Notes: generated by a model not told the origin, from the letters alone. 38,521 bases of DNA from an uncultured Chloroflexaceae bacterium (GCA_964559995.1 CAZLKK010000001.1:1-38521), one strand, 5' to 3'. Counted from the first letter of the stretch, positions 10,492 through 28,128 are shown. Numbers and translations: made by a program.

Positions 10492-13400
10492 CTACAAATC
10501 TGCCAGCAAGATGGCGGCTTCGGTCTGTCCGCGGTAATAGCCGGTTTGGTTGCTCAACTGTTGGGCATAGGACGCTTCTGTATGGGCAGTCTCACGATCC
10601 CCTATCGCCATGTAGACATACGCCAACGCAATGCGGATAGCTGCCTCGTGGAGCCGATAACCCCCCGCCATCGCTAGGCTTAGGGCTTCTTCTAGTGAGC
10701 TACGGGCTACCTGAAAGGCGGATATATACTCTTTGGGGGGTTCCGGTTGGGGAGGAGCATTACCCCCCCTTGCCATCCCCGATTGTTCATCATAACGTGC
10801 CTGCCTCCGCTCGGCGGAGGCGGACAACCGCTCCTTTATCTGGTTGACAAACGTGCGCTCAGGACGGAAGGGCAACTGCTCTGAGATGCCATCTATGAGC
10901 TTAATCCACCCGCCACCAGTATTGCCCCGCGTGGTAGGGGCTTGGGCATCCAGCGGCACCCGCAACGAACGTCCGCGAGTACGTGCTCTCGTCCCCACCC
11001 GCGCCACAGTAAATCGCCTAGCAGTCTCCGGGTTGCTCTGTACCCAGAACTTACGCGAGGTTGAGGAGTCCCCGTCTTCTGTTGCCGTGTCCTTATCCCC
11101 ATCGAGGTCTTCATCGTCTAGCCCCGGCTCATCCTCAACCACCGGGGTAACTTTTTCGCTGAGGAGTGTGGCGATTGTCCGTTGTTGGGTATCTGATGGG
11201 GTTTCGCTGTCGTCTTCGCCTACGCTTTGATCATCTGCCAACCCGATGCTGCCTACGCCTCGCGCCGCCCATAGCCCCCGTGCCAACAACGTTTCAATGA
11301 GCACGAGCCGCCGTGGGATGCCCCGCGCTACCTTGATAGCTTCCTGGTAATGCTGATAGGCAGTCTCTTGGTTTCCCTGCTGGCTATCCAGATCAGCCAA
11401 GATACGATAGCAACGGCTGATCTCTTCTTTCCAGTTGTAGTGTTGGCAGAGCTTCAGATTGGCTTCTATTACCTGGCGTGCTGTATCCATACTGCCAGTC
11501 TGATAGAGATGCTCTGCATACCACCCCCCCCGCTGGTTATAGAGCGAGTAGACATCCGGGTTAGCCTCTCGTTCTAGCAGTTCTGCCCAAACAAAGGTAG
11601 AACGAGCCATAACAAAGTGTCCGCACAGGTGGGCAACCCATGCCTGAAGTGACGATGCCAGCATCTCAAGGTAGCGGTTTTGTGCCTGCCGTGCCAGCAT
11701 AAGCGATTGGCGAATGTATGCGCTGCTTTCGGCAAGCATCCCCCGCTCCATAGCCACATACGCAAGGTGGTAAGCGGCGGTATGGGCGGTGTGCCAGTTT
11801 TGCGCTTCAGTTGCAAGCGTGAGACATTGGCGATAACAAATCGCAGCTTTGGGATACTCGCCTAGATAGTAAAAACAACGGGCAGTTTGGTCAAGCAGGT
11901 GGTAGCAGTGGGTTGTATCGTCAAGTAGCGGCGGTTGGGTAATGTCGCCATTTGGGAAAAATTCCAAGAACAGTGTGCAAGCCAGTTCATACGCGCCCAT
12001 TTGGTCAGTCAAGATACTGACCTCTTGTTGTTGACAGAGATAGTCTTGGTATATGTGCCACGCCTCCGCATATGCCCCCGCTTGGCAGGCGTGGTAGCAG
12101 GCTTCCCTAGCAGGCACTAGATCATGGAGCGTGGGGAGCGGTTGATCGCGCTCGACCAGCGAGAGGTAGTACTCTTTGATGGTATGGTGCAAAGCGGGGA
12201 GTTGGGGGTGTATATCCACCAACTGCACAAGGCGGTTTCGAGCGTAGGTATGGATGAGCGGGTGCAAGATGAAATACCCCTCCTCCTCATCGTAGGTAAG
12301 AATACGATAGTTGACCAGTTGCTCAAGCATCTGTTGGAAGGTGTCATCTTCCAACGCGAGCAGCGGGTCAAGCAATATATCGAACAGGCTGCACGCGTCT
12401 TCGGTCTCTGCTGCATTTTCCCCAACCTCTGGCTCTATTGGCTCTGTTGGTTGCTCTATCTCACTGTCTGGCTCATTCCCCCCCCCATCCGTCTGCTGTG
12501 CCATACCCAGCCGTGTGTCCCCGTTTGCATCCTCCCCATTATCGGGGATGCTGATAGCGCGGGTGGTGCTGGTACCGCTGGTGATAATGGTGATAGTCCG
12601 TGCCGCGGGGGGGGATGCTACGGGAGAATCTTCCCCCCCATCCCCTGCCTCATCGTCTACACCAGGGGGAGCAGGTTCTTCGGTTCCCCCTTGCTCTGTA
12701 TGGGAGCGGGGGCTAGGGGGAGCGGGGGCATCTTCCCCCCCATCCCCTGCCTCATCGTCTACACCGGTGGCATCATCATTGATACACAGAACCACAGAGT
12801 CCGGGCAGGAGACCCCAGTCAAGAGTTCATGATAGACCTCGTTATTGTCAGACTCTTTCTGTTTCTGTGTTTCTGCATCTCTGTCAGATGTCTCTTGTTC
12901 GGACTCCGTGCCACTCCGTGTTTCCGTGTCTCCGTGGTGAACTTTGTCCGGTAGACATCCCTTTGAAGAAACATCTTCCCCCCCATCCCCTGTCCCATCG
13001 TCTATTGTGGGGGGAGCAGGTTCGTCATCCCCTGCCCCACGTCCCACGAGGGGAGAAGGGGAGTCGTTAGGGGGAGCGGGGGGGGCAGGATTATCTCGCA
13101 CCGAGATCGCTATACCCGTTGATTTACGGAGGGGAATAGACGATGATCTTGGCTCACGCTTGGCAGTATCTGCAATGTCATTATCAGCAGCAGTATCGGG
13201 GTCATCAGGGATGGTGATTTCTATGCCCATTGGGATGCGGAAGGGGATGTCGTCATCACCATCATCATTGCCCCTACCCCTACTACCACCACGGCTCCCC
13301 CGAACAACAACGCGATTACTTGGAGTACCTTGCCAATCGCTTGCTTCATCTCTGTTATCAGTATCCCCTGCATCCTCGATGCCCTCTGCGTCCTCGATGC

Positions 13401-15102
13401 CCTCTGTGTCCTCGATGCCCTCTGCGTCCTCGATGCCCTCTGCGTCCTCGAAGCCCTCTGCGTCCTCGCTGCTTTCCCCAAAGGTAGGCTCACCTTGCAC
13501 TATCTCCATCCCCATTGCTGGCGATTGTGGGGGGGCAGGATAATTCCCCTCGGCAAGCAGCTGGAGCATACGGTAGCGTGCCAAAAAAGCGTCACCATTG
13601 CCCTGATAGGTCTGCATCAGGTAGCTACTCATCATACAGAGCGTCAGCGGGTGAGCATCACACGCTGCGACAATTTCGTCTAGCGTTTCCGTGCTGCCCT
13701 TTAGCCCTAGCCGTTGGGCAAGCGCATACCCTTCATCAGGCAACAGCGGCGGCAACTGATGCTGCGTGTAGGAGGGATAGTCAAGCAGATCAAAGATAGG
13801 GGTACGACTGATCAGCACACAGAGCGAGCCATGTTTTATACCAGCAAGGTAGGCGAGAAACTCGCGCAAGTTGGGGCTAGTCAGCATCCCATATTGCTCA
13901 CTATCCTGATGCAACAGCGTTTCTATGCCGTCTAGGATGAAGAGCGATGGACGGCTCGTGACCATTGCGCCGAGGGTCTGCACCCGCATACTCGTTGACG
14001 GCAGCAAGTGGGGGTCTATGCGTGTGCCGCTCAGGTGGGTGAGGGCAGCCAACAAAAACTCATCCACACTCCCCCGCTCCTGAAAATTCCACCAAAACGC
14101 GCTTTCTGGTTGGCGTATCGTCTTATCTGACCACACCTTGCGGAGCCAACGGCGCACCAGACTACTTTTGCCCTGTCCTGCTGCGCCTACGACTCCTACC
14201 ACCTGACAATGGGGATTGCTCAACGCTTCGCTCAAGTGTTGAACCATTGGTTCTTGCCCCACCCAGCGGGTTACAAGCGGCGGTGCATCATACAGCATCT
14301 TACCCGCCCGCGGTATCGCCATCGGATGGGTTGTTGCCCCATCACTGCGTGGGTGATAGCCGGTGCGCTTTCGCATTGGCATATCGTACACCGACACCCC
14401 AAAGGGAGCTTTGCTCAAGATACGGCTACTCACTGCCCAAGCCTTTGGAGTATCCGTTTTGGCTACAACCGGTTGGGATGTGTTTCCAAAGGGGGAGAAG
14501 CTCATCGGAGCGGTAGTTGTGGGGGGGGGAGCAGGAGCAACGATACCAACAACCAAATTGCGCTCAATATCCAAAATAGCCGACCCTGCCAAGTGGTCTA
14601 TTGGCTGCGAGGGACTCAACTTGATACTACCGGGGGGGGCAGCAGGTCCTGCCATACCCGGTAGGGATTGGATCGTCCCTTCAACAAGGACCGGCTTGGG
14701 TTGATCTGCCGAGAAGCCATAGCAACGGAAGGGATGATTGAGCGAACGCTCTGGTGTGCCAAGCACCGCGATCTGCTCTGGGGCAAGCGGTACTTGCCCA
14801 TCCGTCAAGCGCAACAGCACAACAGGCTCCCCATTCGGAGCCATGCTATGGAGTGCGGCACGGGAGGAGTTGGGCAAATCGCTGCCTATTTGGGGAAAGA
14901 CCACAACCACCTCTTGTTCTGGCAGGGAGGTTGTGGGATTCGCTGGCAGGGTAATACCAGCGGCTGCGACAACAGACGGGGCAGTTGCTATGAGACCATC
15001 TCGTGAGACAACAATACCTGCGCCGACAAGTTCACCGGTATGCGGATGGCGGAGTTGGACAGTGAAGTCGCGCAGGTTTTGTAAGCGAATATTGGGATTC
15101 AC
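10492..15102 (-). CDS. STAND NTPase: degenerate trypsin-like domain, NB-ARC-type P-loop ATPase, ~360-aa acidic low-complexity insert, winged helix, and a TPR array carrying a second insert
   Basis: 1536 aa; GTG start 25 nt after the ArsA-like stop.
- N-terminus: GAGIVVSRDGLIATAPSVV ... EPVVLLRL ... CYGF ... AGSAILDIERNLVVGIV follows the Trypsin_2 pattern, but without the usual His and Asp.
- NTPase: Walker A VVGAAGQGKSSL, Walker B SLFILDGIETLL, then LISRTP and LPPLLPDEGYALAQ.
- Winged helix: LVNYRILTYDEEEGYFILHPLIHTYARNRL.
- C-terminal half: TPR-like helical repeats such as CFYYLGEYPKAAICYRQCL and AYHLAYVAMERGMLAESSAYIRQSL. Confidence 0.75.
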   Translation of the reverse strand: MNPNIRLQNLRDFTVQLRHPHTGELVGAGIVVSRDGLIATAPSVVAAAGITLPANPTTSLPEQEVVVVFPQIGSDLPNSSRAALHSMAPNGEPVVLLRLTDGQVPLAPEQIAVLGTPERSLNHPFRCYGFSADQPKPVLVEGTIQSLPGMAGPAAPPGSIKLSPSQPIDHLAGSAILDIERNLVVGIVAPAPPPTTTAPMSFSPFGNTSQPVVAKTDTPKAWAVSSRILSKAPFGVSVYDMPMRKRTGYHPRSDGATTHPMAIPRAGKMLYDAPPLVTRWVGQEPMVQHLSEALSNPHCQVVGVVGAAGQGKSSLVRRWLRKVWSDKTIRQPESAFWWNFQERGSVDEFLLAALTHLSGTRIDPHLLPSTSMRVQTLGAMVTSRPSLFILDGIETLLHQDSEQYGMLTSPNLREFLAYLAGIKHGSLCVLISRTPIFDLLDYPSYTQHQLPPLLPDEGYALAQRLGLKGSTETLDEIVAACDAHPLTLCMMSSYLMQTYQGNGDAFLARYRMLQLLAEGNYPAPPQSPAMGMEIVQGEPTFGESSEDAEGFEDAEGIEDAEGIEDTEGIEDAEGIEDAGDTDNRDEASDWQGTPSNRVVVRGSRGGSRGRGNDDGDDDIPFRIPMGIEITIPDDPDTAADNDIADTAKREPRSSSIPLRKSTGIAISVRDNPAPPAPPNDSPSPLVGRGAGDDEPAPPTIDDGTGDGGEDVSSKGCLPDKVHHGDTETRSGTESEQETSDRDAETQKQKESDNNEVYHELLTGVSCPDSVVLCINDDATGVDDEAGDGGEDAPAPPSPRSHTEQGGTEEPAPPGVDDEAGDGGEDSPVASPPAARTITIITSGTSTTRAISIPDNGEDANGDTRLGMAQQTDGGGNEPDSEIEQPTEPIEPEVGENAAETEDACSLFDILLDPLLALEDDTFQQMLEQLVNYRILTYDEEEGYFILHPLIHTYARNRLVQLVDIHPQLPALHHTIKEYYLSLVERDQPLPTLHDLVPAREACYHACQAGAYAEAWHIYQDYLCQQQEVSILTDQMGAYELACTLFLEFFPNGDITQPPLLDDTTHCYHLLDQTARCFYYLGEYPKAAICYRQCLTLATEAQNWHTAHTAAYHLAYVAMERGMLAESSAYIRQSLMLARQAQNRYLEMLASSLQAWVAHLCGHFVMARSTFVWAELLEREANPDVYSLYNQRGGWYAEHLYQTGSMDTARQVIEANLKLCQHYNWKEEISRCYRILADLDSQQGNQETAYQHYQEAIKVARGIPRRLVLIETLLARGLWAARGVGSIGLADDQSVGEDDSETPSDTQQRTIATLLSEKVTPVVEDEPGLDDEDLDGDKDTATEDGDSSTSRKFWVQSNPETARRFTVARVGTRARTRGRSLRVPLDAQAPTTRGNTGGGWIKLIDGISEQLPFRPERTFVNQIKERLSASAERRQARYDEQSGMARGGNAPPQPEPPKEYISAFQVARSSLEEALSLAMAGGYRLHEAAIRIALAYVYMAIGDRETAHTEASYAQQLSNQTGYYRGQTEAAILLADL
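12628..13004 (-). repeat. In-frame direct repeats inside the STAND low-complexity insert
   Basis: Perfect 36-nt repeat ATCTTCCCCCCCATCCCCTGCCTCATCGTCTACACC at 12628..12663 and 12730..12765, with a diverged third copy at 12973..13004. On the minus strand these encode ..GVDDEAGDGGED.. and ..TIDDGTGDGGED... Confidence 0.85.
13374..13468 (-). repeat. 18-nt tandem repeat, about 5.5 units, in frame (hexapeptide ED(A/T)EG(I/F))
   Basis: The plus-strand unit CCTCGATGCCCTCTGCGT repeats from 13374 with single-base variants. It translates on the minus strand to EDAEGFEDAEGIEDAEGIEDTEGIEDAEGIED. Confidence 0.9.
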
Positions 15103-15127: not shown

Positions 15128-16291
15128 TCAGCGCGTAAAGACCACATGCAGTTCTTCGTTTTCAAAGAACGCATCACGGGCATGGAGCCGTGCCAGCGAT
15201 TGTGGCAGCGCGACCCGGTGCCGATGCCAGCCAACAGAGATTAACAATTCATCAGCATTTTGGGCAAGGTGTATCTGGTCTTCAGAGACAAAGGGCAATG
15301 GCACGATAAGATCGTACCCTTGCGCGGTGCGCTCCACCCGTTGGGTTGGACCGGTGTAGAGAAACGAAGCCGGGTCTACATCTTCACCATAGAGGAGATT
15401 ACCCATCTCTTCAAGCATTTCTAACCCGACAATTTCGCGGGAAAAGTGACCCGATTTGAGTAAGGGCAAGGGGGAAAACATCTGCTCCACCTGGGGATAG
15501 TACCCCTGCTGCATCTCCTGCCAACTGGAGAAATGTCCATCTACATTGTCTGGCAGGATGCGATTGACGACCACGGCATCTACCGCATAGCCAAACAGCG
15601 ACAGATAGGTGAGGCTACGTTGGGCTTCCCGTATGACCATTTTTTCTAAGTTCATCACAATGCGGGCAGTGGTGGTTTGCTGGTCGGTGAGGATACTCCG
15701 TACCGCTACCAGCGAATCAATGGCATCTTGGGCAGAGACGAGTACATCATCCCCCGCGATGGGAATATCACTCACGCGCTTTGCCATAGGACGCACCACC
15801 TTGAGCACCCCCCGCACGATGGGGAAGAGACGCGAAATCCACCAACGCATAATTTCTGGCAACGCCAACAACCGCAGCGTTTCGCCGGTGGGGGCAGCAT
15901 CCACAACCAAGACATCAAATATGCCTTCGTCATAGTGGCGTTTTATCTGTAGCAGGCTAAACAGTTCTTCTGTGCCAGGGATAACCGAAAGTTCCCCCTG
16001 GGCAATAGACTCGACCCCTTGCCATGCCAAAAGGTCAGAAAGGTAGCGTTGTACATCGCCCCAGTTCATTTCTAGTTCGTGAAGGGCGTTTATTTCCTGC
16101 GCCCAGAGGTTGTCTGCAACCTGCATGGGTTCAGCCAACAGTTCAATACCAAAAGAATCTCCAAGCGAGTGGGCGGAGTCCGTGCTAAGGACAACCGTTT
16201 TGTGACCAAGTTTTGCACAGCGTAGCGCAGTCGAAGCGGCAACACTGGTCTTTCCTACCCCACCTTTGCCGGTGTAGAATAATATTCGCAT
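15128..16291 (-). CDS. ArsA/GET3/TRC40-family P-loop ATPase with an HSP20-like C-terminal domain
   Basis: 387 aa, ATG start. Motifs: MRILFYTGKGGVGKTSVAAS (deviant Walker A), STDSAHSLGDSF, VVDAAPTGETLRLL (DTAPTGHT-type switch motif with Glu in place of His). The C-terminal ~100 aa (YDLIVPLPFVSEDQIHLAQNADELLISVGWHRHRVALP) resembles the HSP20-like tail of bacterial and plastid Get3/ArsA homologs. Confidence 0.8.
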   Translation of the reverse strand: MRILFYTGKGGVGKTSVAASTALRCAKLGHKTVVLSTDSAHSLGDSFGIELLAEPMQVADNLWAQEINALHELEMNWGDVQRYLSDLLAWQGVESIAQGELSVIPGTEELFSLLQIKRHYDEGIFDVLVVDAAPTGETLRLLALPEIMRWWISRLFPIVRGVLKVVRPMAKRVSDIPIAGDDVLVSAQDAIDSLVAVRSILTDQQTTTARIVMNLEKMVIREAQRSLTYLSLFGYAVDAVVVNRILPDNVDGHFSSWQEMQQGYYPQVEQMFSPLPLLKSGHFSREIVGLEMLEEMGNLLYGEDVDPASFLYTGPTQRVERTAQGYDLIVPLPFVSEDQIHLAQNADELLISVGWHRHRVALPQSLARLHARDAFFENEELHVVFTR

Positions 16292-16396: not shown

Positions 16397-16405
16397 ATTA
16401 TACCA
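16397..16405 (-). promoter_or_regulatory. Putative extended -10 promoter box TGGTATAAT for the ArsA-like/STAND pair
   Basis: The plus strand reads ATTATACCA, so the minus strand reads TGGTATAAT. It lies 106 nt upstream of ATG 16291, in the 136-nt gap after the lipase-like gene. Confidence 0.45.
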
Positions 16406-16427: not shown

Positions 16428-17264
16428 CTACTCCCCCTCCAGCAACGGCGGCGGGGCAGGCAACACTGGCACATCTGCCGTTCCCGTTATCTGTGCTGGT
16501 GCAGGCGGTGTGGGGAGCTCTGGCGGCTCTGGCGGCTCTGGTGGCTCTGGTGGCTCTACCGTGTGCCACCACAAACGGACGATCTCCTCGTTATGCCCAT
16601 ACCATACCCGCGTATCAGGCAGCGGGTCGTGGCGTAGCCCCTCTAGTATCACATGCTCTGCCCCATCCAGCAGACCGCACGACAACGGCACAACCCCATC
16701 CCCCCACTGCTCCCCACTAGCACTCAACATCGCGTAGCTCTCCCACGCGCTCCGCTCTGCCCGTTCGCCATCTGGTATCCCCTGTATCCCTTGAGAAATA
16801 ACCGTCACATAGCGAATAAACCGCCAGTAGGCACCGGGGTAGTGCGTTTGGGCAAAGACAATCTGGTTGAGACCACCAAAACGTCCCTGTTTGGTTGTCG
16901 TATGGGGGGTACCAAGCGTAATGAGCGTTGTCACACGCTGGAAACCGTGAAAGACCAACTGCTCGTTGCCATAGGGTTGGTCGCCCATGTAGATACGCGC
17001 CAAAATCCCCCCGGCACTATGCGCTACCACCATAAGCTGTTGGGCGCGGGTGCGGCGGAGCGTGTCATTGACAGCAATATGCAGTTTCTTGAGCAAGGGG
17101 GTATAGTCATCACTCACGATAACCCCCAACCAGTCGAGGGTCACGAGGCGGGTAACGTATACGCGGCGTTGGGTGATGGACTCAAGGATATGGCGGAGCG
17201 GTTCGTAGGCTTGCCAACTTGCCCCAAACCCACCAATGATGAGAATTGGGAGATTCTCTGGCAT
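16428..17264 (-). CDS. Lipase/PGAP1-like alpha/beta hydrolase with a Pro-Glu repeat C-terminal tail
   Basis: 278 aa, ATG start. Motifs: ILIIGGFGASW, nucleophile elbow VVAHSAGGILA (A-x-S-x-G as in Bacillus-type lipases), LITLGTPH. The C-terminal tail reads VEPPEPPEPPEPPELPTPPAPAQ. Confidence 0.7.
   Translation of the reverse strand: MPENLPILIIGGFGASWQAYEPLRHILESITQRRVYVTRLVTLDWLGVIVSDDYTPLLKKLHIAVNDTLRRTRAQQLMVVAHSAGGILARIYMGDQPYGNEQLVFHGFQRVTTLITLGTPHTTTKQGRFGGLNQIVFAQTHYPGAYWRFIRYVTVISQGIQGIPDGERAERSAWESYAMLSASGEQWGDGVVPLSCGLLDGAEHVILEGLRHDPLPDTRVWYGHNEEIVRLWWHTVEPPEPPEPPEPPELPTPPAPAQITGTADVPVLPAPPPLLEGE
16518..16553 (-). repeat. 9-nt tandem repeat x4 encoding PEP repeats
   Basis: The plus strand reads CTCTGGCGG CTCTGGCGG CTCTGGTGG CTCTGGTGG. 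It is in frame in the hydrolase C-terminus. Confidence 0.85.
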
Positions 17265-17288
17265 AGGGCTTTTCCCGTATGTATCAAA

Positions 17289-17341
17289 GGGGTACCGGGG
17301 GGCAGAACGATGTCATCACGTCTGTGTCCCCCCCTGTACCC
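17289..17341 (-). terminator. Inverted repeat between the STAS-like stop and the lipase-like start; a possible terminator or RNA stem
   Basis: GGGTACCGGGGGG (17290..17302) pairs with CCCCCCTGTACCC (17329..17341) as 6+6 bp with one mismatch and a 26-nt loop. No clean U-run follows. Confidence 0.25.
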
Positions 17342-17372
17342 AAATAAGATTGCTTGCCAGAGGACTTCCTAA

Positions 17373-17747
17373 CTAGGAGGAAGCCTGGGTCGTAGCGATA
17401 AGCGATTCTTGTTGCAAAAAGGCGAGGGCTTCCTCTTCACTGCCAAACATATGCACCCCCGCAAAGAGTTTCACCAGGGAAGAAAACAACAAGAGGTACG
17501 GCTGATTGACCACGAAAAAGTACATCCCAACATGGGGATGGTGCTTCACCTTCTCAATAATATTGCGAGCCACCGGGCAAGACGTATTCACCCCACGAGC
17601 ATTGATAAGAATGTTCGTAGGTTGTGGGCAATGATCTAGCATTTCCCACGCTTCTACATAGTAATTCTCGGCTGTCTCCCTATCTACATGCCCATTCATC
17701 TCCAATCGGAGCAGATTTGGTGCGAGTAATGACAGGCTATAAGACAT
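17373..17747 (-). CDS. Small hypothetical protein (124 aa), possibly with a STAS/SpoIIAA-like fold
   Basis: I place the start at ATG 17747 (MSYSLSLLAPNLLRLEMNGH...), with GAAGG about 9 nt upstream. The longer track ORF (to 17921) would overlap the upstream radical SAM gene. The functional guess rests only on size and an alternating strand/helix-like pattern. Confidence 0.45.
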   Translation of the reverse strand: MSYSLSLLAPNLLRLEMNGHVDRETAENYYVEAWEMLDHCPQPTNILINARGVNTSCPVARNIIEKVKHHPHVGMYFFVVNQPYLLLFSSLVKLFAGVHMFGSEEEALAFLQQESLIATTQASS

Positions 17748-17809
17748 GATGGCTACCTTCTTTCTAACTTTTTCTACAGCGAGTATACAACGGCGTATCC
17801 TTCTGCCTA

Positions 17810-19189
17810 TTACAGCAGCATTTCTGGGGTAAGACGTTGCGTGAAATTGTGCATTGCCAGATTTGCTGCCCAGATCCAATCGAGTTTGTGTCCTTGCAAT
17901 CGATGACGTATCCCTCTCCATGAGTAAACTTCACGTTGTATTTTGATAAAGTTTTTCAAAAACTCATGTTGTCCCATCTTTGCCGGGTGATACATATAAT
18001 GAAAGGTATCGTACTTGTCCCAGTCAAAGTGCAGGATGCGATCTTTGATTTCATCAAACCACGCGGTACCGGGAAACGGGGTTGCTATGGTAAAAACGGG
18101 AAACTCTACCCGATTCCGCATGATAAAATCATATGTTGTTTGGAAACCCTCTGTTGTATCTGTGTCAAAGCCAAAAATAAAGTAGCCCTGTAAAGCCAGG
18201 TTATGTTTCTTTGTGTTTTGTACTACGATGTCATACCGTTCAATACGGTTTGACCCCTTGCCAACGGATTTTATTGTTTCAGGATTGAGTGATTCAAAGC
18301 CTACGTTGAGTAATTCACACCCAGAGGCTTTGGCAAGTTCGGGGATATGCGGTTTTTCAAGAAAGTTCATGGAGATATTCGAGTTCCAGCGAATCCCTTT
18401 CCCGACCATGCTATTGAGCAATTCCTCAATAAAATCAGGTCGGAAGCAGATGTTATCATCCATGAAGGAAATATTGATGTCTTTTCGTTTGAGCCTATCT
18501 TGATGGTATTCTATCTCTTCAATAACGTGGTCTACCGTGCGGGTGCGATAGGTCTTGCCATACACCTTGTAGGCACAGCAAAAGCTACAGCTAATGGGAC
18601 ACCCTTTAGTCGCCAGCAGCGGTATGCGGGTGCTATATTTTCTCGCATGCTTGGAGCGCATGGCAATATTGAAATCGGCATGCTCCATGCTCGCCATCTC
18701 TTTGAAGTCTGAGGCACGATAGAAAGGCTTGAGCTTGTCCTGTTGCACATCTTGCAGCAACTCTTCCCACACCGACTCTACCTCGCTAGAGACGATAGAG
18801 GTACTATGCTCACGGGCTTCTTCGGAGAGCATCGTTGGATGAACCCCCCCAAGAATAACCTGCTTGCCCTGGGCAAGGGCTTTGTCGGCTATCTCATAGG
18901 CTTTTTTGGCATTGAGGGTGCGCGAGGTAATGGCGACAACATCGTACTCAGTGAGATCATCTGGCACCTTGTCGCCAATGCGCTCATCCACAAAGTCAAG
19001 GTCAAAGTACTTTTGCACCAGGGTAGCAACCATCAGCAGGTTGAGCGGGATGCTCACCTTGCCAGAGTCTACCATCAGCGGGGTAGCACTTTTTGGCTGT
19101 ACAATCAACCATTTTTTGCGCCGACCATTGGTAGATGGGTTGTAGCGAGTTATTTTGGTTCCGTTTGTTGCTGGGTTCTGGTGTGCCAT
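17810..19189 (-). CDS. B12-binding-domain radical SAM enzyme (class B; BchE/BchQ/BchR-type family), copy 2
   Basis: 459 aa from ATG 19189, 10 nt after the upstream stop; the track start 19294 overlaps the upstream gene. The N-terminal half resembles a B12-binding domain (YDVVAITSRTLNAKKAYEIADKALAQGKQVILGGVHPT). The CX3CX2C cluster is KGCPISCSFC. Paralogous to 19200..20726. Confidence 0.8.
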   Translation of the reverse strand: MAHQNPATNGTKITRYNPSTNGRRKKWLIVQPKSATPLMVDSGKVSIPLNLLMVATLVQKYFDLDFVDERIGDKVPDDLTEYDVVAITSRTLNAKKAYEIADKALAQGKQVILGGVHPTMLSEEAREHSTSIVSSEVESVWEELLQDVQQDKLKPFYRASDFKEMASMEHADFNIAMRSKHARKYSTRIPLLATKGCPISCSFCCAYKVYGKTYRTRTVDHVIEEIEYHQDRLKRKDINISFMDDNICFRPDFIEELLNSMVGKGIRWNSNISMNFLEKPHIPELAKASGCELLNVGFESLNPETIKSVGKGSNRIERYDIVVQNTKKHNLALQGYFIFGFDTDTTEGFQTTYDFIMRNRVEFPVFTIATPFPGTAWFDEIKDRILHFDWDKYDTFHYMYHPAKMGQHEFLKNFIKIQREVYSWRGIRHRLQGHKLDWIWAANLAMHNFTQRLTPEMLL

Positions 19190-19199
19190 AATGGTTGTA

Positions 19200-20726
19200 T
19201 TATCCCTTGACCACTTCTGTTGCTGCCATCTGTGGTTCCGCTTTGGTATCTGCGAGAGTCTGTTCAACCGGGCGGCGGCGACCTGCCCGTACATTCTTCA
19301 GTTGGTCTGCTAGATTACGCTTGAAATAGATGCTAGTCACAAGGTTAATCAGCTTGTTGGAATTGTTCATGACCCTGGTAACAATCGTCTTCCAGGAGTA
19401 CATCGCCAAGTAGTGCTCCAAGAACTTGATTTGATATTCTAGCGGGTCAAACCGCTCACTCTTGACGACAAGATTAGCGGCAGTATACTTGTCCCAATCT
19501 TCGTCAACGACCAAGCCCTTTTCCTTATATTCCCAATACATCGCCGTACCGGGGTAGGGAGTGATGAGCGAATAGATGGGCATGACAATGTGGTTCTTGC
19601 GGACAAATTCTTCTACCGCGTCCATATCTGCGAAGGAGTCTACATCTGGGTTGGTCAGGAAGTTGCCCTGCACACAGAGTCCCGCTTCGCGGCACTGGCG
19701 GATGATGCGAATGAATTTCTCCACGCTGTTCTGGCGGCTCTTGTTGTACAACTTGAGCGTTTCATCATTGATAGACTCAAACCCGACCAGCACCATAGCA
19801 CAGCCGGCATCTACCAACAGTCTGACTGTCTTGGGGTCTTCTAGGAAGTTGAGACTGATAAAGCTACTAAAGCGAATATTGCACCCCTTGATAGCCTCAA
19901 GAATATCCCAGAGTTTCTTCTTATTAACCCCCAGGTTCTCGTCAGTAAACATAAACCAGGGTTTATCGCCATAGCGCGTCTTCTTGAAGAAGACCTGCTT
20001 TGCCTGCTCTATCTGCTGGACAATTGCTTCTGGGGTCTGGATACGGTAGAGCTTGCCCGTGAAATTTGGCGTAACGCAAAAGGAGCAGGTGTAGGGGCAG
20101 CCCCGCGAAATGTAGATAGGGATAGACTTTCGGGCATCGACCTTTTCGCGCTTGCTTGCCTTGAAAATGCGCTCATAGTCAATCATTGGGGCTTCAGTCA
20201 CAGGCGGGAAATCGCCAGAGAAGTAGTAGGGTAGGATATGCTCCTTCCCCTGGGCGGCATGTTCTATGATGGTAGTCCACATCCCATCTGCCTCGCCAAT
20301 GATCACCGAGTCGCAGTGCGGGGATGCTTCGTCATAGTTGAAGGAGACGTGTACGCCACCTATGACAACGGGAGTTCCCCGTTTCTTGAACTCATCGGCT
20401 ATCTCGTAGGCACGGGTCGCGTTGAGGGTGCGGGTGGTAATACCAACAAGATCATAATCGCCATCATAGGGTATTTCATCACCAAAGAGATCATCAGCAA
20501 TTTCTAGCTGATGCTGCGGTGGGGTAATGCTTGCCAACACCCCAATTGCCATCGTAAATAGGGGCTTTTGCCCACTGTCTTCCTCCTGTTTGCCTTTGGG
20601 CATCACCAGCAGAATCTTGAGCGGACGGACGCTTTCCGGCGGCTGTGCGGGTCCCGTTGCCCGAGTAATTGGTATGGGTGGGACGGTTAGTAATGATTCT
20701 TGATGACTATGACTAGGAGAACTCAT
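19200..20726 (-). CDS. B12-binding-domain radical SAM enzyme (class B; BchE/BchQ/BchR-type family), copy 1
   Basis: 508 aa, ATG start with GAAGGG upstream. Motifs: YDLVGITTRTLNATRAYEIADEFKKRGTPVVIGGVHVS (B12-binding-like), RGCPYTCSFC (CX3CX2C), LVGFESINDETL. Confidence 0.8.
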   Translation of the reverse strand: MSSPSHSHQESLLTVPPIPITRATGPAQPPESVRPLKILLVMPKGKQEEDSGQKPLFTMAIGVLASITPPQHQLEIADDLFGDEIPYDGDYDLVGITTRTLNATRAYEIADEFKKRGTPVVIGGVHVSFNYDEASPHCDSVIIGEADGMWTTIIEHAAQGKEHILPYYFSGDFPPVTEAPMIDYERIFKASKREKVDARKSIPIYISRGCPYTCSFCVTPNFTGKLYRIQTPEAIVQQIEQAKQVFFKKTRYGDKPWFMFTDENLGVNKKKLWDILEAIKGCNIRFSSFISLNFLEDPKTVRLLVDAGCAMVLVGFESINDETLKLYNKSRQNSVEKFIRIIRQCREAGLCVQGNFLTNPDVDSFADMDAVEEFVRKNHIVMPIYSLITPYPGTAMYWEYKEKGLVVDEDWDKYTAANLVVKSERFDPLEYQIKFLEHYLAMYSWKTIVTRVMNNSNKLINLVTSIYFKRNLADQLKNVRAGRRRPVEQTLADTKAEPQMAATEVVKG

Positions 20727-20777
20727 TGTTACCCTTCAATGTTTTGATAGTTTATCGTGATGAAAAACACGAAGCTG

Positions 20778-20786
20778 ATTATACCA
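20778..20786 (-). promoter_or_regulatory. Putative extended -10 promoter box TGGTATAAT ahead of the radical SAM pair
   Basis: The plus strand reads ATTATACCA, so the minus strand reads TGGTATAAT. It lies 52 nt upstream of ATG 20726, within the 125-nt gap after the hydrolase gene. Confidence 0.45.
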
Positions 20787-20851
20787 CGCTCAATACAAAC
20801 TGTCTAGCTAAGGCTACGTCAAAGTCGCAAAATCTTTTGCATTGGGCAACT

Positions 20852-21730
20852 TTAGCCATGATCCTGTCGATCTATCCAAGCAGCGAGTACCTGGCAAAAC
20901 TCCTCTGGCACCTCGTCAAAGGGGCAATGTCCCGCATCAGCCAGCATATGGATGTCGGCTTGTGGGAGTATGCGCTCCTTGAGGATATGGGCATGGGCGA
21001 AGGGGAGCGATTGATCTTCCTCACCCCAGATAATCAGGGTAGGCGTTTGGATAGCCCCTGCTGGTACGTCAAGGATGAGCCGAGCAAAAGCCCGTGATGC
21101 TGCCAAGTAGGATGCCACCCCACCGGGTTGGCTAAGGGGCTTACTGAAGGCTTCAATGAGAGCAGGTGTGACCATCTCCTTGCGGTGGTAGGCGGCGAGC
21201 AAACTCTGGCGCACCGTCTCCTTGCCGCTGAGGATGCCACCCATCATCTCGCCAAGCAGCGGCGCACGGATAGCCCCAACGAGGATACGCTCAATGAGCG
21301 ATGATGGCTCGCTGGATTCTGTCAAGCCGGTGCTATCTACCAACACCAACCCCCGCAAGAACTGCGGGTAGTTGTAGGCTAACTGGGTAGCAACAACGCC
21401 GCCCATGGAGTGACCCACCACAATAGCGGGACCGGGGACGACCTTACTGATCAGGTCAGCTACTTGGTCTGCCCAAAATTCCTTTGATGGAGCTACTTGG
21501 AGTCGAGAGGAATATCCAAAGCCAAAGAGATCAAGCGCGTAGACGGTATAGTGTTGCGCTAACGGACGCATCACCCGCCACCAGTGCTCAATAAGTCCCC
21601 CGTAGCCATGAATGAGTACCACAGGGATTCCCTGGTGGGGTACCGATTCCCAGTAACGAGTAAAGCCGTGGTTGCCTTCTAGCCAGTGTTCATAGATTGC
21701 ATGCGGTACTACGTCTGTTGGTGCCGTCAT
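20852..21730 (-). CDS. Alpha/beta-fold hydrolase (MhpC/BioH-like esterase type)
   Basis: 292 aa. Motifs: VVLIHGYGG, LDLFGFGYS, nucleophile elbow VGHSMGG, C-terminal DAGHCPFDE (catalytic His region). Confidence 0.8.
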   Translation of the reverse strand: MTAPTDVVPHAIYEHWLEGNHGFTRYWESVPHQGIPVVLIHGYGGLIEHWWRVMRPLAQHYTVYALDLFGFGYSSRLQVAPSKEFWADQVADLISKVVPGPAIVVGHSMGGVVATQLAYNYPQFLRGLVLVDSTGLTESSEPSSLIERILVGAIRAPLLGEMMGGILSGKETVRQSLLAAYHRKEMVTPALIEAFSKPLSQPGGVASYLAASRAFARLILDVPAGAIQTPTLIIWGEEDQSLPFAHAHILKERILPQADIHMLADAGHCPFDEVPEEFCQVLAAWIDRQDHG

Positions 21731-21802
21731 AATGCTGAGGGGTAAACCTCATGTCCTTACGTTCATACGGGGGTATGCCCCCATATGGACAACTGAGATG
21801 AC

Positions 21803-21852
21803 CGTTGGTCTTTCCCTTGCTGTCTGCGAACGAGTAGCGAGAAAGACCAACG
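21803..21852 (-). terminator. 12-bp perfect inverted repeat downstream of the CsmN-like ORF; a possible terminator, attenuator or RNA stability stem
   Basis: CGTTGGTCTTTC (21803..21814) pairs with GAAAGACCAACG (21841..21852) across a 26-nt loop. It begins 42 nt after stop 21894 on the minus strand. No U-run follows. Confidence 0.3.
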
Positions 21853-21893
21853 ACAGCATTGCGATATACGTCCTGCGCTTGTAGCGTTGCTGC

Positions 21894-22304
21894 TTACTTT
21901 TTCTTTTCTACCCACTCATCAACTTTGCCCCCAGAAGCGGGGGCATCTTTGGCACCACCGGATACCGCGTTGCCTACTTCTTGGGCAGATTTTGCCATAC
22001 GATCTGTGAAATCACGGACGCGATCCCCGACTTCCTCAAAGCGGGGCAGGGAAATCTCACCAGAGCCGCTAAAAGCCTGGTCTACAACCCCCTGTGCCGT
22101 GCGGGAAATCTCACGGGGGACATCCATAATGGCTGTGGTGGCATTGCAAATGGTCTGGCGTACTTGCTGGTTGGTCTCTGTGGGCAACAACCCTAGAGGC
22201 AGGGAAACAATATTCAACCCGCCACGAACAACCCCATCAACGACACCAAGCATCATATCCAATGGATTTGGTGTGGTGTTCTCTTGCGTTTTCTGTTCTG
22301 ACAT
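21894..22304 (-). CDS. Small soluble/amphipathic protein (136 aa), candidate chlorosome envelope protein of the CsmM/CsmN type
   Basis: ATG start with GAGGA 9 nt upstream. It shares NPL..ML..V and (V/I)V(S/T)LPL(G/A)(L/I)LP(T/P)E..(Q/K)QV..TI with the 105-aa ORF at 22623..22940. Its position immediately after the chlorophyll synthase and bchU-like genes matches what I recall of Chloroflexus csmM/csmN. No alignment was run. Confidence 0.45.
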   Translation of the reverse strand: MSEQKTQENTTPNPLDMMLGVVDGVVRGGLNIVSLPLGLLPTETNQQVRQTICNATTAIMDVPREISRTAQGVVDQAFSGSGEISLPRFEEVGDRVRDFTDRMAKSAQEVGNAVSGGAKDAPASGGKVDEWVEKKK

Positions 22305-22407
22305 TGCTACATTCCTCTTTCTTGTCTGGTATTTTTCGCTAGATTCTTACATCTTCAGTACGTTAGGTTTTACCCCTACCGAACTCACCCGATGGAGAAG
22401 CATGGCT

Positions 22408-22566
22408 TTAGCTATCTTGCTTCTTTTGCGGCTGATTAGCCCAATCTTCTACCGCTTTAGTGATAACATTTGCCCACTGTGCCGGGAAACTTACGACACT
22501 TTCCAGCATCGATGCCAACGGGTTTGTCGTTGGTGCTTGGGTTTCCTGCTTTTGCTCTTCTGCCAT
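22408..22566 (-). CDS. Unlisted 52-aa ORF, third paralog of the CsmM/CsmN-like pair (lacks the central segment)
   Basis: Hand-translated codon by codon as MAEEQKQETQAPTTNPLASMLESVVSFPAQWANVITKAVEDWANQPQKKQDS, ending at a TAA stop. An in-frame TAA lies upstream at 22603..22605. The C-terminal 28 aa nearly match the C-terminus of 22623..22940 (AVVSFPGDWANVVTKAVEDWANQPVNKQQD). At the DNA level 22430..22498 matches 22645..22713 at 57 of 69 positions (hand count). The RBS is weak (AGGT 7 nt upstream). Confidence 0.45.
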   Translation of the reverse strand: MAEEQKQETQAPTTNPLASMLESVVSFPAQWANVITKAVEDWANQPQKKQDS

Positions 22567-22622
22567 AACGCAACCTGTATCTTTCCAGGCAGCAATGCTG
22601 CCTTACTGGAACACCCTGACGA

Positions 22623-22940
22623 CTAATCCTGCTGTTTGTTGACGGGCTGATTTGCCCAATCTTCTACCGCTTTGGTGACGACATTTGCCCAATCCCCAGG
22701 AAAGCTGACGACAGCCTTTACTGTGTCTTGGATGGTGTCTTGTACCTGCTTGCGTGATTCCGGCGGGAGAATAGCGAGGGGGAGGGTCACAACCCCCAAT
22801 GCCATACGAACGACAGTATTCCCACCTTCTAAGACGGAGGAGAGGACATTCTTTGAGCTTTCCGGGGTACGCACATTGCGTACTCGAACCTCTCCCTCAA
22901 CGTCAGCCGGTTTTTTCTGTTCTGTTTTTTCTGCTGCCAT
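22623..22940 (-). CDS. Small soluble/amphipathic protein (105 aa), candidate chlorosome envelope protein of the CsmM/CsmN type
   Basis: ATG start with AGGA 7 nt upstream. Paralogous to 21894..22304 and 22408..22566 (see those entries). No transmembrane segment is evident. Confidence 0.45.
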   Translation of the reverse strand: MAAEKTEQKKPADVEGEVRVRNVRTPESSKNVLSSVLEGGNTVVRMALGVVTLPLAILPPESRKQVQDTIQDTVKAVVSFPGDWANVVTKAVEDWANQPVNKQQD

Positions 22941-22984
22941 AGAAATTCCTGCTACCTTTCTGTTTACTAGGTTCCTAAAGGCGA

Positions 22985-23914
22985 CTAATCGAAATATCCA
23001 CCTGCGACAAATGCCGAGACAAATTGTATGGCAATGATAAACAGGTTACTTGCTAACATATAGCGCATAAAGTTCTTGTGTGATGGGTTTTTATACAGGC
23101 TCATTTGGCTAAAGAAGGGGATAAGCATAGCTGCTAAGACCAACCCTGCTACCCACAAGTACCCCCACACGAGCGCGAGGATCATCAGTGCCAACTCTGA
23201 GCCGTTGATAAAACCAAATGCTACGAGCATGGCGCGTTGCTCGCCAAGCATCACGGGGAGCGATTTTAACCCATGCTTGCGATCCCCTTCAACACTTTTG
23301 ATGTCGTTGAGGAAAATCAACCCTGTAGCGATACCGCCATTGATGACCGCCATAATTGCGCTGCGCCAGGTCAGTTCAGCAAAAATGATATGCCCTGCCC
23401 ACCAGCTCATACAGGCATAGCCAAGCCCCACCGCGGGAGCACTGAGCCAGACGTTCTTCTTGAGCTTGATAGGGGGGACACTGTAGATAGCCCCAAGCAA
23501 CAAGCCGGCGATGATCAGTATGGTAATCCAGGGGCTTGCATAGACCAACGAAACGAGCATCGTCACAACAGCCAAGATAATCCAGTTGAGCCGGGCTTCG
23601 GTGAGGGTAACATCACCGGCTGGGATGGGACGCGAGGGGTCATTGATAGCATCAAGTTCACGGTCATAGTAGTCATTGATGCTTTGGCTAAAGCCAGTGG
23701 CTAATGGACCCATCATGATAGCCCCCAAGATCACCAAGAGGAGACTTACAGGGTCCGTTGGATTGAAACTTGATCCTGCTGCTATGGCACCACAAACACA
23801 CATCAAGGCTGGCGAAATCCACGTTATGGGGTCGGTCAGCCTGATGTGAGCGTTAATGCGTCTGCTCAGTGTTACACTGCTTTCAGATGTCGAAACCACG
23901 GTTGCTCCTGGCAA
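22985..23914 (-). CDS. bchK: (Bacterio)chlorophyll synthase, UbiA prenyltransferase family; context favours BChl c synthase BchK over BchG
   Basis: The motifs NDYYDRELDAINDPSRPIPAG, YSVPPIKLKKNVW and NDIKSVEGDRKHGLKSLPV match the ChlG/BchG/BchK signature blocks, and multiple TM helices are present. The track start is TTG 23914. GTG 23899, with GGAG 5 nt upstream, is an alternative start. The K-versus-G assignment rests on neighbourhood only. Confidence 0.7.
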   Translation of the reverse strand: MPGATVVSTSESSVTLSRRINAHIRLTDPITWISPALMCVCGAIAAGSSFNPTDPVSLLLVILGAIMMGPLATGFSQSINDYYDRELDAINDPSRPIPAGDVTLTEARLNWIILAVVTMLVSLVYASPWITILIIAGLLLGAIYSVPPIKLKKNVWLSAPAVGLGYACMSWWAGHIIFAELTWRSAIMAVINGGIATGLIFLNDIKSVEGDRKHGLKSLPVMLGEQRAMLVAFGFINGSELALMILALVWGYLWVAGLVLAAMLIPFFSQMSLYKNPSHKNFMRYMLASNLFIIAIQFVSAFVAGGYFD

Positions 23915-23954
23915 AAATCAATCTATCCATAGGTGCTCGTTACCGTCCTTATCG

Positions 23955-24977
23955 TTAGGAACGGGGTTTTACTGCCTGATACAAAACGTGTTCGTAGGCT
24001 TCGTGCATTGTTACCTTTTCAAAGCCAACACGTTGCAGCACATCTGGATAGATGGTATGACTCTTAAAATCCAATACCGAGAAGTTTAGCCCAATAGCGC
24101 AAATATAATGGGTGAGATAGTCGTAGTTGGGGGCTTCCGGGTCGCTAATGATAAGGTCTAGGATGAGGATACGCCCACCGGGTTCTAGGGCTTCAAAGGC
24201 TTTCTGACACATCATGGTACAGAATTGTTCATTCATTGGGTAGAGAATACGCCCAAACATCAGCGCATCACACGCAGGGTAAGGTTCTTTGTACATATCC
24301 ATAGCAATGGGGGTGATGCGGTCTGCCAAGCCTTTGGATGCTGCGTTTTCTCGGACGAGTTCGATGGCACTTGGTAGGTTGATGAGCGTGACGTTGAGGT
24401 CTGGGTGTTGCTGGCACATTGCTGCAGCAATATCCCCTATACCGCCGCCTACGTCTACCATGTGGTTGACCCCGCCGAGCTCTGCATGGTCTTGCATCAG
24501 CTTGATGGGATAGTACACATTGCTCCGATGGATCGTCTCGTAATAGAGGCTCTCTTCGGGAGTCGTTGGAGGATACGGTACAACGCTGGTCAGGTCTACC
24601 TTCCCCTTGACGGCATCAGCAAGCTGCATAAAGAAGCGTTCTGACAGGTCTGCCATATAAGCAATATGGGGGGTCATCGTGAGATTTTGGGTTTCTTCCG
24701 ACTCTACGAAAAACCGGCGAGAAAACTCGGTAAGCTCCCATGAGCCGTTTTCCTCTTGAACTAGCCCTAGCTGTTGAAGCGTGATCAAGAACCGCTCAAG
24801 CCGTGCAGGGACCCCTGCTATTGCCTGTGCAAGCTCATCGAGCGTATACGCTTTCCCGTCCATTACTTTGAAAATTCCAAGATCATAGGCGGCTTTCATG
24901 CAGCTAAATTCAACCGCACTTTTGAATACCATATCATAGGCACGATTTGTTGCCTGCAACAGGTCTTTATCGTTCAT
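23955..24977 (-). CDS. bchU: Class I SAM-dependent O-methyltransferase of the CrtF/BchU family; context favours bacteriochlorophyllide C-20 methyltransferase
   Basis: 340 aa, ATG start with GGGGA upstream. It has an N-terminal dimerisation/winged-helix-like region and the SAM motif I HMVDVGGGIGDIAAAM. It lies directly upstream of the chlorophyll synthase gene, with a 40-nt gap. Confidence 0.6.
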   Translation of the reverse strand: MNDKDLLQATNRAYDMVFKSAVEFSCMKAAYDLGIFKVMDGKAYTLDELAQAIAGVPARLERFLITLQQLGLVQEENGSWELTEFSRRFFVESEETQNLTMTPHIAYMADLSERFFMQLADAVKGKVDLTSVVPYPPTTPEESLYYETIHRSNVYYPIKLMQDHAELGGVNHMVDVGGGIGDIAAAMCQQHPDLNVTLINLPSAIELVRENAASKGLADRITPIAMDMYKEPYPACDALMFGRILYPMNEQFCTMMCQKAFEALEPGGRILILDLIISDPEAPNYDYLTHYICAIGLNFSVLDFKSHTIYPDVLQRVGFEKVTMHEAYEHVLYQAVKPRS

Positions 24978-25050
24978 GTGTCCCCAATCTACGTTTCCAA
25001 AAAGTTGTTACTACGAGAAGTGTCTTTCATCTTAATTTTGTGATGACCTT

Positions 25051-25078
25051 ATTATATTACAAATAGTGAATTATTCAA
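25051..25078 (-). promoter_or_regulatory. Putative sigma-70 type promoter for the bchU-led gene array
   Basis: The minus strand reads TTGAAT (25078..25073), a 16-nt spacer, then TATAAT (25056..25051). It sits in an AT-rich stretch about 75 nt upstream of ATG 24977. Confidence 0.5.
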
Positions 25079-25278
25079 GTGTGACGGATTCCGTGTTAGG
25101 GCAACGTAACGAGCGGATGTCTGAGAGTGGGGGCATTGTTCGCCTTTGACACACCCCTGGGGTCTAACGAAAGTGCTAGACGGGGCAACTTGTGCTACCA
25201 TGCGTGAACACAACCCGTACACTATGGTGAAATGGGTAGGATTAGGATCGTGAGGGACAATTAAGGACAATAAGGACC

Positions 25279-26949: not shown

Positions 26950-26961
26950 CAGCAAGATGCA

Positions 26962-28128
26962 GTGCGGGTACTTGGGCGTATGGAAGGTGATGGGTATGTG
27001 GCTATGGGATTGCTTGAACTTGCCTGTGACCCGAACGTCGAGCCGGTGGTACGACTTGAATCGGCAACAGCGTTGGGGAAACTTGGACACGTTGACGAAG
27101 CAGCACAAGCTCTCGTGACGTTAGCCCACAACCCACAACATGATCTATGGTGTGCGCGGGCAGCGGCGGTAGTGCTTGGGTCGTTGGGACGCAAGGATGA
27201 AGCGGCAGAAGCCCTCTTAGCCCTAGCCCGCGACCCGCAGGGCAGCATCCGTGAGCGATGTGCGGCGGCGGTAGCCCTGGAGACTCTAGGACACCGCGAT
27301 GAGGCAGTAGAGGTGTTGTTGATGCTGGCACGCGACCCCCAGGGGGATGCGGCAGTACGGCGCAATGCAGCGGAGACGCTTGGGCGGCTTGGACACCATG
27401 AGGCTGCTGCTGAGGTGTTGTTGGACTTGGCTGGTAATGCGGCACAGAACGCATGGCAAAGACGCTATGCTGCTGAGGCGTTGGGGATGCTTGGACGTAG
27501 GCAAGAAGCGGCGAGTATTCTATTGGCACTCGCCCAAGACCCCTCGCTAGAGAGCCGCGTTCGCCGCTTTGCAACTGAATCCTTGGGGACGCTTGGCTAC
27601 CAAGATGAGGCGGTCTTTGCTGGCTTGCTCAAGTTGGCGCAGGATTTTTCGCGTAGCCCGTGGGAACGTACCACGGCGGCGATGGCTCTGGGCAAACTTG
27701 GGCGCAAAACTGATGCGGTGGGGGTGCTGATGAGTCTAGCGCACGATACGAGCAAGGGACCATCGGTGCGCCGTGCGGCATCGGTTGCGCTTGGCAATCT
27801 AGGCTACCCAGATGAGGCGGCAGAGGTCCTGATGGCGTTGGCGTGTGATTCGTTTGGCGACCCGTGGGAACGGTGTACGGCGGCGATGGCGATGGCTTCG
27901 TTGGGACGCACTGATAAGGCGGTGTTGGATAGTCTGCTCACGTTAGCCCACAATCCCAAAGCCCAAGATGATGAACGGGCAACAGCAGCGGTGGCACTTG
28001 GTAAACTTGGACGTAGCGAGGAAGCAGCAAAGGTGTTGTTAGCATTGGCATGCGATACCGATGTAGCGGGGTGGGTGCGGCGCACGGCGTATGATAGCCT
28101 CAAACGGCTCGTGGGTAGCCGGGGGTAG
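26962..28128 (+). CDS. HEAT-repeat (PBS-lyase HEAT-like) protein; probably the C-terminal sensor part of the upstream NACHT gene
   Basis: About eleven ~31-aa repeats of the type (D/E)EA.EVLL.LA.DP...(W/V)(E/R)R..AA.ALG.LGR. The track start is GTG 26962, with no convincing RBS there or at ATG 26980. Frame continuity across TAG 26947..26949 was checked by hand. Confidence 0.75.
   Translation: MRVLGRMEGDGYVAMGLLELACDPNVEPVVRLESATALGKLGHVDEAAQALVTLAHNPQHDLWCARAAAVVLGSLGRKDEAAEALLALARDPQGSIRERCAAAVALETLGHRDEAVEVLLMLARDPQGDAAVRRNAAETLGRLGHHEAAAEVLLDLAGNAAQNAWQRRYAAEALGMLGRRQEAASILLALAQDPSLESRVRRFATESLGTLGYQDEAVFAGLLKLAQDFSRSPWERTTAAMALGKLGRKTDAVGVLMSLAHDTSKGPSVRRAASVALGNLGYPDEAAEVLMALACDSFGDPWERCTAAMAMASLGRTDKAVLDSLLTLAHNPKAQDDERATAAVALGKLGRSEEAAKVLLALACDTDVAGWVRRTAYDSLKRLVGSRG

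Follow-up and report, generated by a model that had tools for sequence, protein, structure and literature searches.

In the green sulfur bacterium Chlorobaculum (C.) tepidum, two genetically characterized class B radical S-adenosylmethionine (SAM) enzymes of bacteriochlorophyll (BChl) biosynthesis, BchQ and BchR, are encoded far apart, with bchQ beside a BCHF-domain gene and ~440 kb from bchR. The functions of BchQ and BchR have been summarized together with the lack of both genes in Chloroflexus (PMC7242693), and a 2019 genome announcement citing Grouzdev et al. 2015 likewise records that the genus Chloroflexus lacks both genes and that "Ca. Viridilinea halotolerans" has them (PMC6346205). 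The genome paper of Chloroflexus (Cfx.) aurantiacus describes the gene order bchU-bchK-csmM-csmN (Caur_0137-0140) and does not mention bchQ (PMC3150298). Here we analyze a 38,521 nucleotide (nt) stretch of DNA from an uncultured Chloroflexaceae bacterium (GCA_964559995.1, CAZLKK010000001.1:1-38521; hereafter, the window). Unlike the separated genes of C. tepidum, two adjacent radical SAM genes on its minus strand are, by sequence comparison, very probably bchQ followed by bchR, coding for two cobalamin-dependent methyltransferases that would tailor chlorosome BChl. The gene pair is of a known kind, and the locus adds a case from a lineage without an individual description.

The bchQ ortholog, RS1 (19200..20726, minus strand), codes for a predicted bacteriochlorophyllide d C-8(2)-methyltransferase of 508 amino acids (aa), and the bchR ortholog, RS2 (17810..19189, minus strand), for a predicted bacteriochlorophyllide d C-12(1)-methyltransferase of 459 aa, both of the class B (cobalamin-dependent) radical SAM type. 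The longest RS2 reading frame starts at 19294, with the extra stretch overlapping RS1; the ATG at 19189 gives the 459 aa protein and a 10 nt spacer, tacaaccatt, behind the RS1 TAA. Gene calling in a 98% identical relative (L001; loci of our genome survey carry L numbers) arrives at the same start and the same 10 nt gap, with an RS2 counterpart of 457 aa. This close spacing suggests that bchQ and bchR are co-transcribed, and their translation is possibly coupled. RS1 carries the motif GCPYTCSFC at residues 209–217, of which C210, C214 and C217 are invariant in a ten-sequence BchQ alignment (A1), and RS2 carries GCPISCSFC at residues 196–204 with all three cluster cysteines present (C197, C201 and C204). 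Pfam models match RS1 as B12-binding (PF02310, 36.0 bits against a cutoff of 32.1) and Radical_SAM (PF04055, 64.9 bits), and RS2 as Radical_SAM (PF04055, 58.4 bits) and, under the gathering score, as B12-binding. Both proteins exhibit the class B architecture with a CxxxCxxC motif, as in BchQ and BchR, although they are only 30% identical to each other. An initial annotation of this DNA had described tandem class B radical SAM open reading frames (ORFs) 10 nt apart with these two motifs; its coordinates are exact, and a B12-binding and a Radical_SAM match are found in each protein.

A homolog search covering 5.8 billion proteins places the relatives of RS1, at 57–96% identity, exclusively in Chloroflexales, in Chlorobiales of the Chloroherpeton/Thermochlorobacter type, and in Chlorobiaceae, and the relatives of RS2 fall in the same taxa. 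Every specific JGI name among the RS1 matches reads "bacteriochlorophyll C8" or "bacteriochlorophyllide d C-8(2)-methyltransferase", and every one among the RS2 matches "C12" or "C-12(1)-methyltransferase"; the remaining JGI matches of both proteins bear a generic radical SAM name only. RS1 shares 60% identity over 448 aa with P0241 of C. tepidum TLS, encoded at AE006470.1 1,683,528–1,684,949 next to the BCHF-domain gene, and RS2 is 60% identical over 436 aa, nearly its full length, to P0191, encoded at AE006470.1 1,241,819–1,243,225; these two proteins we take to be BchQ and BchR. P0241, which lies outside the first 120 RS1 matches, was found with a high-GC Chlorobiaceae BchQ (P0112) as the query. 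RS1 is thus closer to C. tepidum BchQ than to RS2 and the R family (30%), and RS2 is the counterpart of C. tepidum BchR. RS1 shares with C. tepidum BchQ its domain architecture, the CxxxCxxC motif and the co-occurring bchU and bchK genes, and differs in extensions of ~30 residues at both the N-terminus and the C-terminus (508 versus 473 aa). A sequence search of the PDB with the pair returns distant matches only, AprD4 (6fd2) and 9ccb, at E values of 1e-9 to 1e-5.

A genome survey was made in a species-representative genome collection, from which the best 80 loci were retained. ORFs from these loci, named references and, as the outgroup, six more distant Chlorobiaceae class B paralogs make up a neighbor-joining (NJ) tree of 116 sequences with Kimura-type distances, which contains no BchE, HpnP or HpnR sequences. 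RS1 falls in a Q clade of 84 sequences and RS2 in an R clade of 26 sequences that also holds C. tepidum BchR, each with a bootstrap of 100/100; identities are at least 52–56% within the clades and at most 33% between them. The separate clades and the 60% identity of each protein to its C. tepidum counterpart bear out the proposal of the initial annotation that the pair represents BchQ/BchR-like C-8(2) and C-12(1) methyltransferases. In both clades, the window proteins group with those of L003 and L004 on a branch of their own, apart from the main Oscillochloridaceae group. Of the 126 Q-clade columns with at least 97% conservation, RS1 retains 119, and of the 152 conserved R-clade columns, RS2 retains 147; at the 36 columns that discriminate Q from R, the Q residue is present 35 times in RS1 and the R residue 33 times in RS2. 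With L003 as the comparison, RS1 has a ratio of nonsynonymous to synonymous substitution rates (dN/dS) of 0.06 and RS2 one of 0.03. Thus, retention of these residues and low dN/dS identify RS1 and RS2 as intact genes under selection. The closest deposited relative is a Chloroflexaceae metagenome-assembled genome (MAG), 96–98% identical, in which neither protein bears a specific name in the sources searched. In the same tree, BchQ proteins of the Chloroherpeton/Thermochlorobacter type nest among the Chloroflexales BchQ rather than with those of the Chlorobiaceae, a pattern of the NJ topology that may point to lateral transfer between the phyla.

The 80 loci belong to Chloroflexales or Chlorobiales, save one contig of 1.8x coverage binned as Gracilibacteria. 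That contig groups within the Chloroflexales BchQ and is likely mis-binned, and it is the sole non-phototroph label in the set, so equal occurrence of such pairs in non-phototrophs without pigment genes, which the initial annotation had offered as grounds for abandoning its proposal, is not seen among these loci. RS1 accordingly shows the restriction to organisms with BChl c/d/e chlorosomes and the co-occurrence with bchU and bchK expected of BchQ, with bchU and bchK both in the same window. The R gene directly follows the Q gene in 18 of 36 Chloroflexales loci, including that of Oscillochloris trichoides DG6 (L037), and in none of 43 Chlorobiales loci. The statement of the initial annotation that Chloroflexus lacks bchQ and bchR agrees with both published sources (PMC6346205, PMC7242693). 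The novelty implied for a Chloroflexota-like genome does not follow, since the pair is already reported in "Ca. Viridilinea halotolerans" (PMC6346205) and stands in tandem in O. trichoides DG6 and 17 other Chloroflexales loci. The Oscillochloridaceae pairs (O. trichoides DG6, Oscillochloris sp. ZM17-4 and "Ca. Viridilinea") resemble the window pair in Q-to-R gene order and orientation, come from the same taxonomic order and phylum, are 63–64% identical to each of the window proteins, and are known as bchQ/bchR in published work. They differ in that ~80–250 nt separate the tblastn matches in Oscillochloris-type loci, compared to the 10 nt gap of the window, and in that the window pair is directly linked to bchU, bchK and csm-like genes, an arrangement also present in L035 and L039. 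A literature search for homolog or methylation data from Chloronema found none. One Chloroflexaceae MAG contains two bchQ paralogs on separate contigs (L005 and L049).

Other class B enzymes also deserve consideration as the identity of the pair. The initial annotation named as its main alternative that both proteins are paralogs of BchE, the anaerobic Mg-protoporphyrin monomethyl ester cyclase. Similar to the pair, BchE is a B12-binding radical SAM protein of tetrapyrrole metabolism, active in (bacterio)chlorophyll biosynthesis, and the BchE model TIGR02026 gives weak partial matches to RS1 and RS2 (E = 5e-22 and 3e-24). However, these matches do not extend beyond the radical SAM core and reach 78.4 (RS1) and 85.8 bits (RS2), where the equivalog cutoff is 481, whereas the proteins share 60% identity and a 100/100 clade with C. 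tepidum BchQ and BchR, respectively; the likelihood of a BchE-like cyclase is therefore vanishingly small. It is also extremely improbable that the pair consists of methylases for a non-tetrapyrrole substrate, from hopanoid or lipid families such as HpnR, HpnJ or those of the ladderane type, that merely lie near pigment genes. HpnJ is the best NCBIfam match by E value, at 92 and 87 bits, but the scores of all such models are far under their equivalog cutoffs (HpnJ at most 92 versus 578 bits, HpnR at most 62 versus 650, and the lipid radical SAM model TIGR04072 at most 64 versus 360). Furthermore, homologs at 57% identity or above are confined to the chlorosome-bearing Chloroflexales and Chlorobiales, and the Chlorobiaceae Q homolog usually adjoins bchU. 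With scores this far under cutoff (58–92 bits for BchE, HpnR and HpnJ, against 481–650), both the BchE-like and the hopanoid or lipid identities are rejected.

A different possibility accepts RS1 and RS2 as true BchQ and BchR orthologs in which one or both have altered regiochemistry, methylation number or substrate, as would be the case if they acted on precursors of BChl d instead of BChl c, or if BchR were attenuated by changes near the iron-sulfur motif. The separate branch formed with L003 and L004 in both clades is compatible with such a change, and the presence of two bchQ paralogs in some Chloroflexales and Chlorobiaceae suggests functional diversification within the family. RS2 and L003 also carry the substitutions G200S, inside the CxxxC segment, and P207Y, both beside the iron-sulfur motif and both distinguishing RS2 from C. 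tepidum BchR; they are common only to these two proteins, and conservation at both positions is 97% or more across the remaining 24 BchR sequences. Strong purifying selection (dN/dS of 0.03–0.06), the discriminating residues retained in both proteins and the three intact cluster cysteines nevertheless make altered function very unlikely.

The two RS2 substitutions also count among the points that weigh against assigning the pair to bchQ and bchR with typical functions. The B12-binding match of RS2 reaches 26.2 bits, under the Pfam gathering score of 32.1, although it spans residues 38–128, a stretch conserved with C. tepidum BchR. NCBIfam holds no BchQ or BchR model, and the 24–26 NCBIfam matches per protein are all to generic class B radical SAM families far under cutoff; because no curated model with a trusted cutoff is available, family membership is judged from pairwise identities and from an NJ, not a maximum likelihood, tree. 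The C. tepidum reference proteins are presumably CT1777 (BchQ, encoded beside bchV) for P0241 and CT1320 (BchR) for P0191; the genome positions of both and the neighbors of the former fit these locus tags. Neither enzymology nor pigment analysis of this organism or of any Chloroflexales BchQ or BchR was found in the literature searched. Finally, the predicted bchQ promoter is a consensus match only.

That promoter is a predicted sigma-70-type element with an extended -10 (20778..20806, minus strand), consisting of TAGACA, 17 nt, and TG-G-TATAAT. It contains an exact TGGTATAAT at 20786..20778 on the minus strand, 52 nt 5' of the bchQ ATG, with TAGACA 17 nt further upstream; the initial annotation had placed this box ahead of the pair at exactly these positions. 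The box sits in the 125 nt gap between an upstream hydrolase gene and RS1. From this sequence evidence, bchQ and bchR probably possess a separate, internal promoter with an extended -10. Within 17000..25400, this site ranks first among sigma-70-like matches, with 11 of 12 consensus positions plus the extended TG. TGGTATAAT occurs three times in the window compared to 0.25 expected, a 12-fold enrichment that none of 100 shuffles reached, and every copy is intergenic and correctly oriented: at 9430..9438 (plus strand) facing an SDR gene, at 16397..16405 (minus strand) facing a Get3d ATPase gene, and at 20778..20786 (minus strand) facing bchQ. It has the look of a promoter element favored by this organism. 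L003 has the identical box, -35 element and leader, while its adjacent upstream sequence has diverged and gained an insertion of ~100 nt. Alternatively, the box may not be an active promoter, with bchQ and bchR transcribed only by read-through from the promoter region of bchU. All genes from bchU through the Get3d gene lie on one strand, the stretch from the hydrolase gene to bchQ showed no terminator-like site, a second good promoter match is present upstream of bchU at 25078..25051, and the 13 promoter-like sites in the region do not exceed the number in shuffles (8.6 +/- 3.6). Against the rank, enrichment and conservation of the bchQ box, transcription by read-through only is a tentative possibility and, on balance, doubtful.

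The L003 insertion (L003 6800..6905), just upstream of the bchQ box and absent from the window, is G-rich and hairpin-forming, with a folding energy of -55.8 kcal/mol and a z-score of -2.4. Motifs related to it, GGGNNAGGGGGAGCCG, occur three times in the window (8932..8948, 31350..31366 and 37455..37471) where 0.2 are expected, and their recurrence suggests a small repeat family resembling repetitive extragenic palindromic (REP) sequences or miniature inverted-repeat transposable elements (MITEs).

The pair is located at the end of a string of bchU, bchK, csm-like and hydrolase genes. The head of this same-strand cluster is bchU, coding for the bacteriochlorophyllide d C-20 methyltransferase (23955..24977, minus strand; TIGR02716, 465 bits against a cutoff of 276), followed by a bchK-like (bacterio)chlorophyll synthase gene (22985..23914, minus strand; TIGR01476, 321 bits against a cutoff of 212) that scores 251 bits with a BChl c synthase model built from Chlorobi, under that model's cutoff of 494. 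Both genes are 3–4 kb upstream of the pair. Three small ORFs on the minus strand, of 105, 52 and 136 aa (22623..22940, 22408..22566 and 21894..22304), occupy the csmM/csmN position. None of the three matches a Pfam or NCBIfam model; the 105 aa and 52 aa ORFs have in common a C-terminal motif, SFPxxWANVxTKAVEDWANQP, and small ORFs after bchK are kept in L001, L009, L035 and L039. On the basis of synteny, the three are putative chlorosome envelope proteins. The 52 aa ORF is probably not CsmA, given the C-terminal motif that it has in common with the neighboring 105 aa ORF, and it is presumably also unlike Chloroflexus CsmA in sequence. Directly upstream of bchQ is an alpha/beta-fold hydrolase gene (20852..21730, minus strand; Abhydrolase_1, 103 bits) with homologs, 49–52% identical, close to bchQ-bchR in L004, L016 and L035. 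Identity of this hydrolase with BchO was rejected at 63.7 bits against a model cutoff of 172. Overall, the window order corresponds to the Cfx. aurantiacus string bchU-bchK-csmM-csmN, with the bchK-like gene after bchU matching Caur_0137/0138, extended by hydrolase, bchQ and bchR.

Downstream of bchR are a STAS-like ORF, a PGAP1-like esterase gene and the gene for a Get3d-type ATPase. The SpoIIAA/STAS-like ORF (17373..17747, minus strand; 124 aa) begins 62 nt downstream of bchR and has a weak match to PF11964 (E = 3e-4); L001 has a called gene of 124 aa in the corresponding position, and homologs follow bchR in L016 and L022. The pigment-cluster setting claimed for the pair holds with respect to bchU, bchK and the three small ORFs, but the cluster is small and its flanks consist of non-pigment genes. 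Within 25279..28128 (plus strand), an in-frame TAG at 26947..26949 interrupts a NACHT and HEAT-repeat protein of ~950 aa, leaving ORFs of 556 and 388 aa. In L001, which is 96% identical, the codon is GAG (Glu) and the gene, of 949 aa, is intact; the TAG represents a nonsense mutation, a pseudogene or a sequencing error.

The ATPase, an ArsA/Get3 protein of the Get3d type with a C-terminal HSP20/alpha-crystallin domain (15128..16291, minus strand; ArsA_ATPase, 301 bits; ArsA_HSP20, 72 bits), is encoded four genes downstream of bchR on the same strand as the pair. Get3d is conserved in cyanobacteria, green sulfur and nonsulfur bacteria, where its role is not known (PMC10248533). Of the 32 Chlorobiaceae loci, 21 (among L052–L081) have a homolog, 43–44% identical to the window protein, at most 700 bp from bchQ, usually in the order Get3d-bchQ-bchU. 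In the window, bchU, bchK and the csm-like genes are followed on the same strand by a single string that comprises the hydrolase, bchQ, bchR, STAS-like, PGAP1-like esterase and Get3d genes. It seems unlikely that bchQ and bchR belong to a conserved module of chlorosome tailoring and biogenesis instead of standing alone as a pair. If they do, the TGGTATAAT promoters before bchQ and Get3d could allow light-dependent tuning of BChl methylation apart from bchU and bchK. From the cross-phylum linkage with bchQ, photosynthesis-associated Get3d could work in chlorosome assembly, for example in the delivery of envelope proteins; this linkage in two phyla is the only forward-looking element of the locus. 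Several Chlorobiaceae (L052, L056, L069 and L072) have the order bchQ-Get3d-bchQ-bchU. Directly after the window Get3d gene is a 1536 aa ORF (10492..15102, minus strand) with long acidic repeats of the DAEGIED type and TPR-like C-terminal regions, and a truncated counterpart is present behind the Get3d gene in L001.

We infer the enzymatic activities of RS1 and RS2 from knowledge of the class B radical SAM family, from C. tepidum BchQ and BchR, and from a review of these enzymes (PMC7242693). The [4Fe-4S] cluster of the CxxxCxxC motif would reductively cleave SAM to give a 5'-deoxyadenosyl radical, which would take hydrogen from an unactivated side-chain carbon of 3-vinyl-bacteriochlorophyllide d. 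The resulting substrate radical would receive a methyl group from methylcobalamin in the N-terminal domain, and a second SAM would re-methylate the cobalamin. BchQ is predicted to act on C-8(2) in up to three rounds, from ethyl to n-propyl, isobutyl and neopentyl, and BchR on C-12(1) in one round, from methyl to ethyl. The mixture of homologs would broaden and red-shift the absorbance of BChl aggregates in the chlorosomes, and the internal extended -10 promoter would permit expression of bchQ and bchR independently of bchU and bchK.

In green sulfur bacteria, C-8/C-12 methylation makes chlorosome absorption broader and red-shifted, a trait associated with low-light adaptation. Two genes that for the most part appear in public sources simply as "radical SAM protein" receive their correct names here. 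The known spread of bchQ and bchR across the Chloroflexales and Chlorobiales also gains one lineage, leaving current understanding unchanged. With both bchQ and bchR present, this uncultured phototroph of the Chloroflexaceae type is predicted, from its sequence, to differ from Chloroflexus in making BChl c homologs with methylated side chains.

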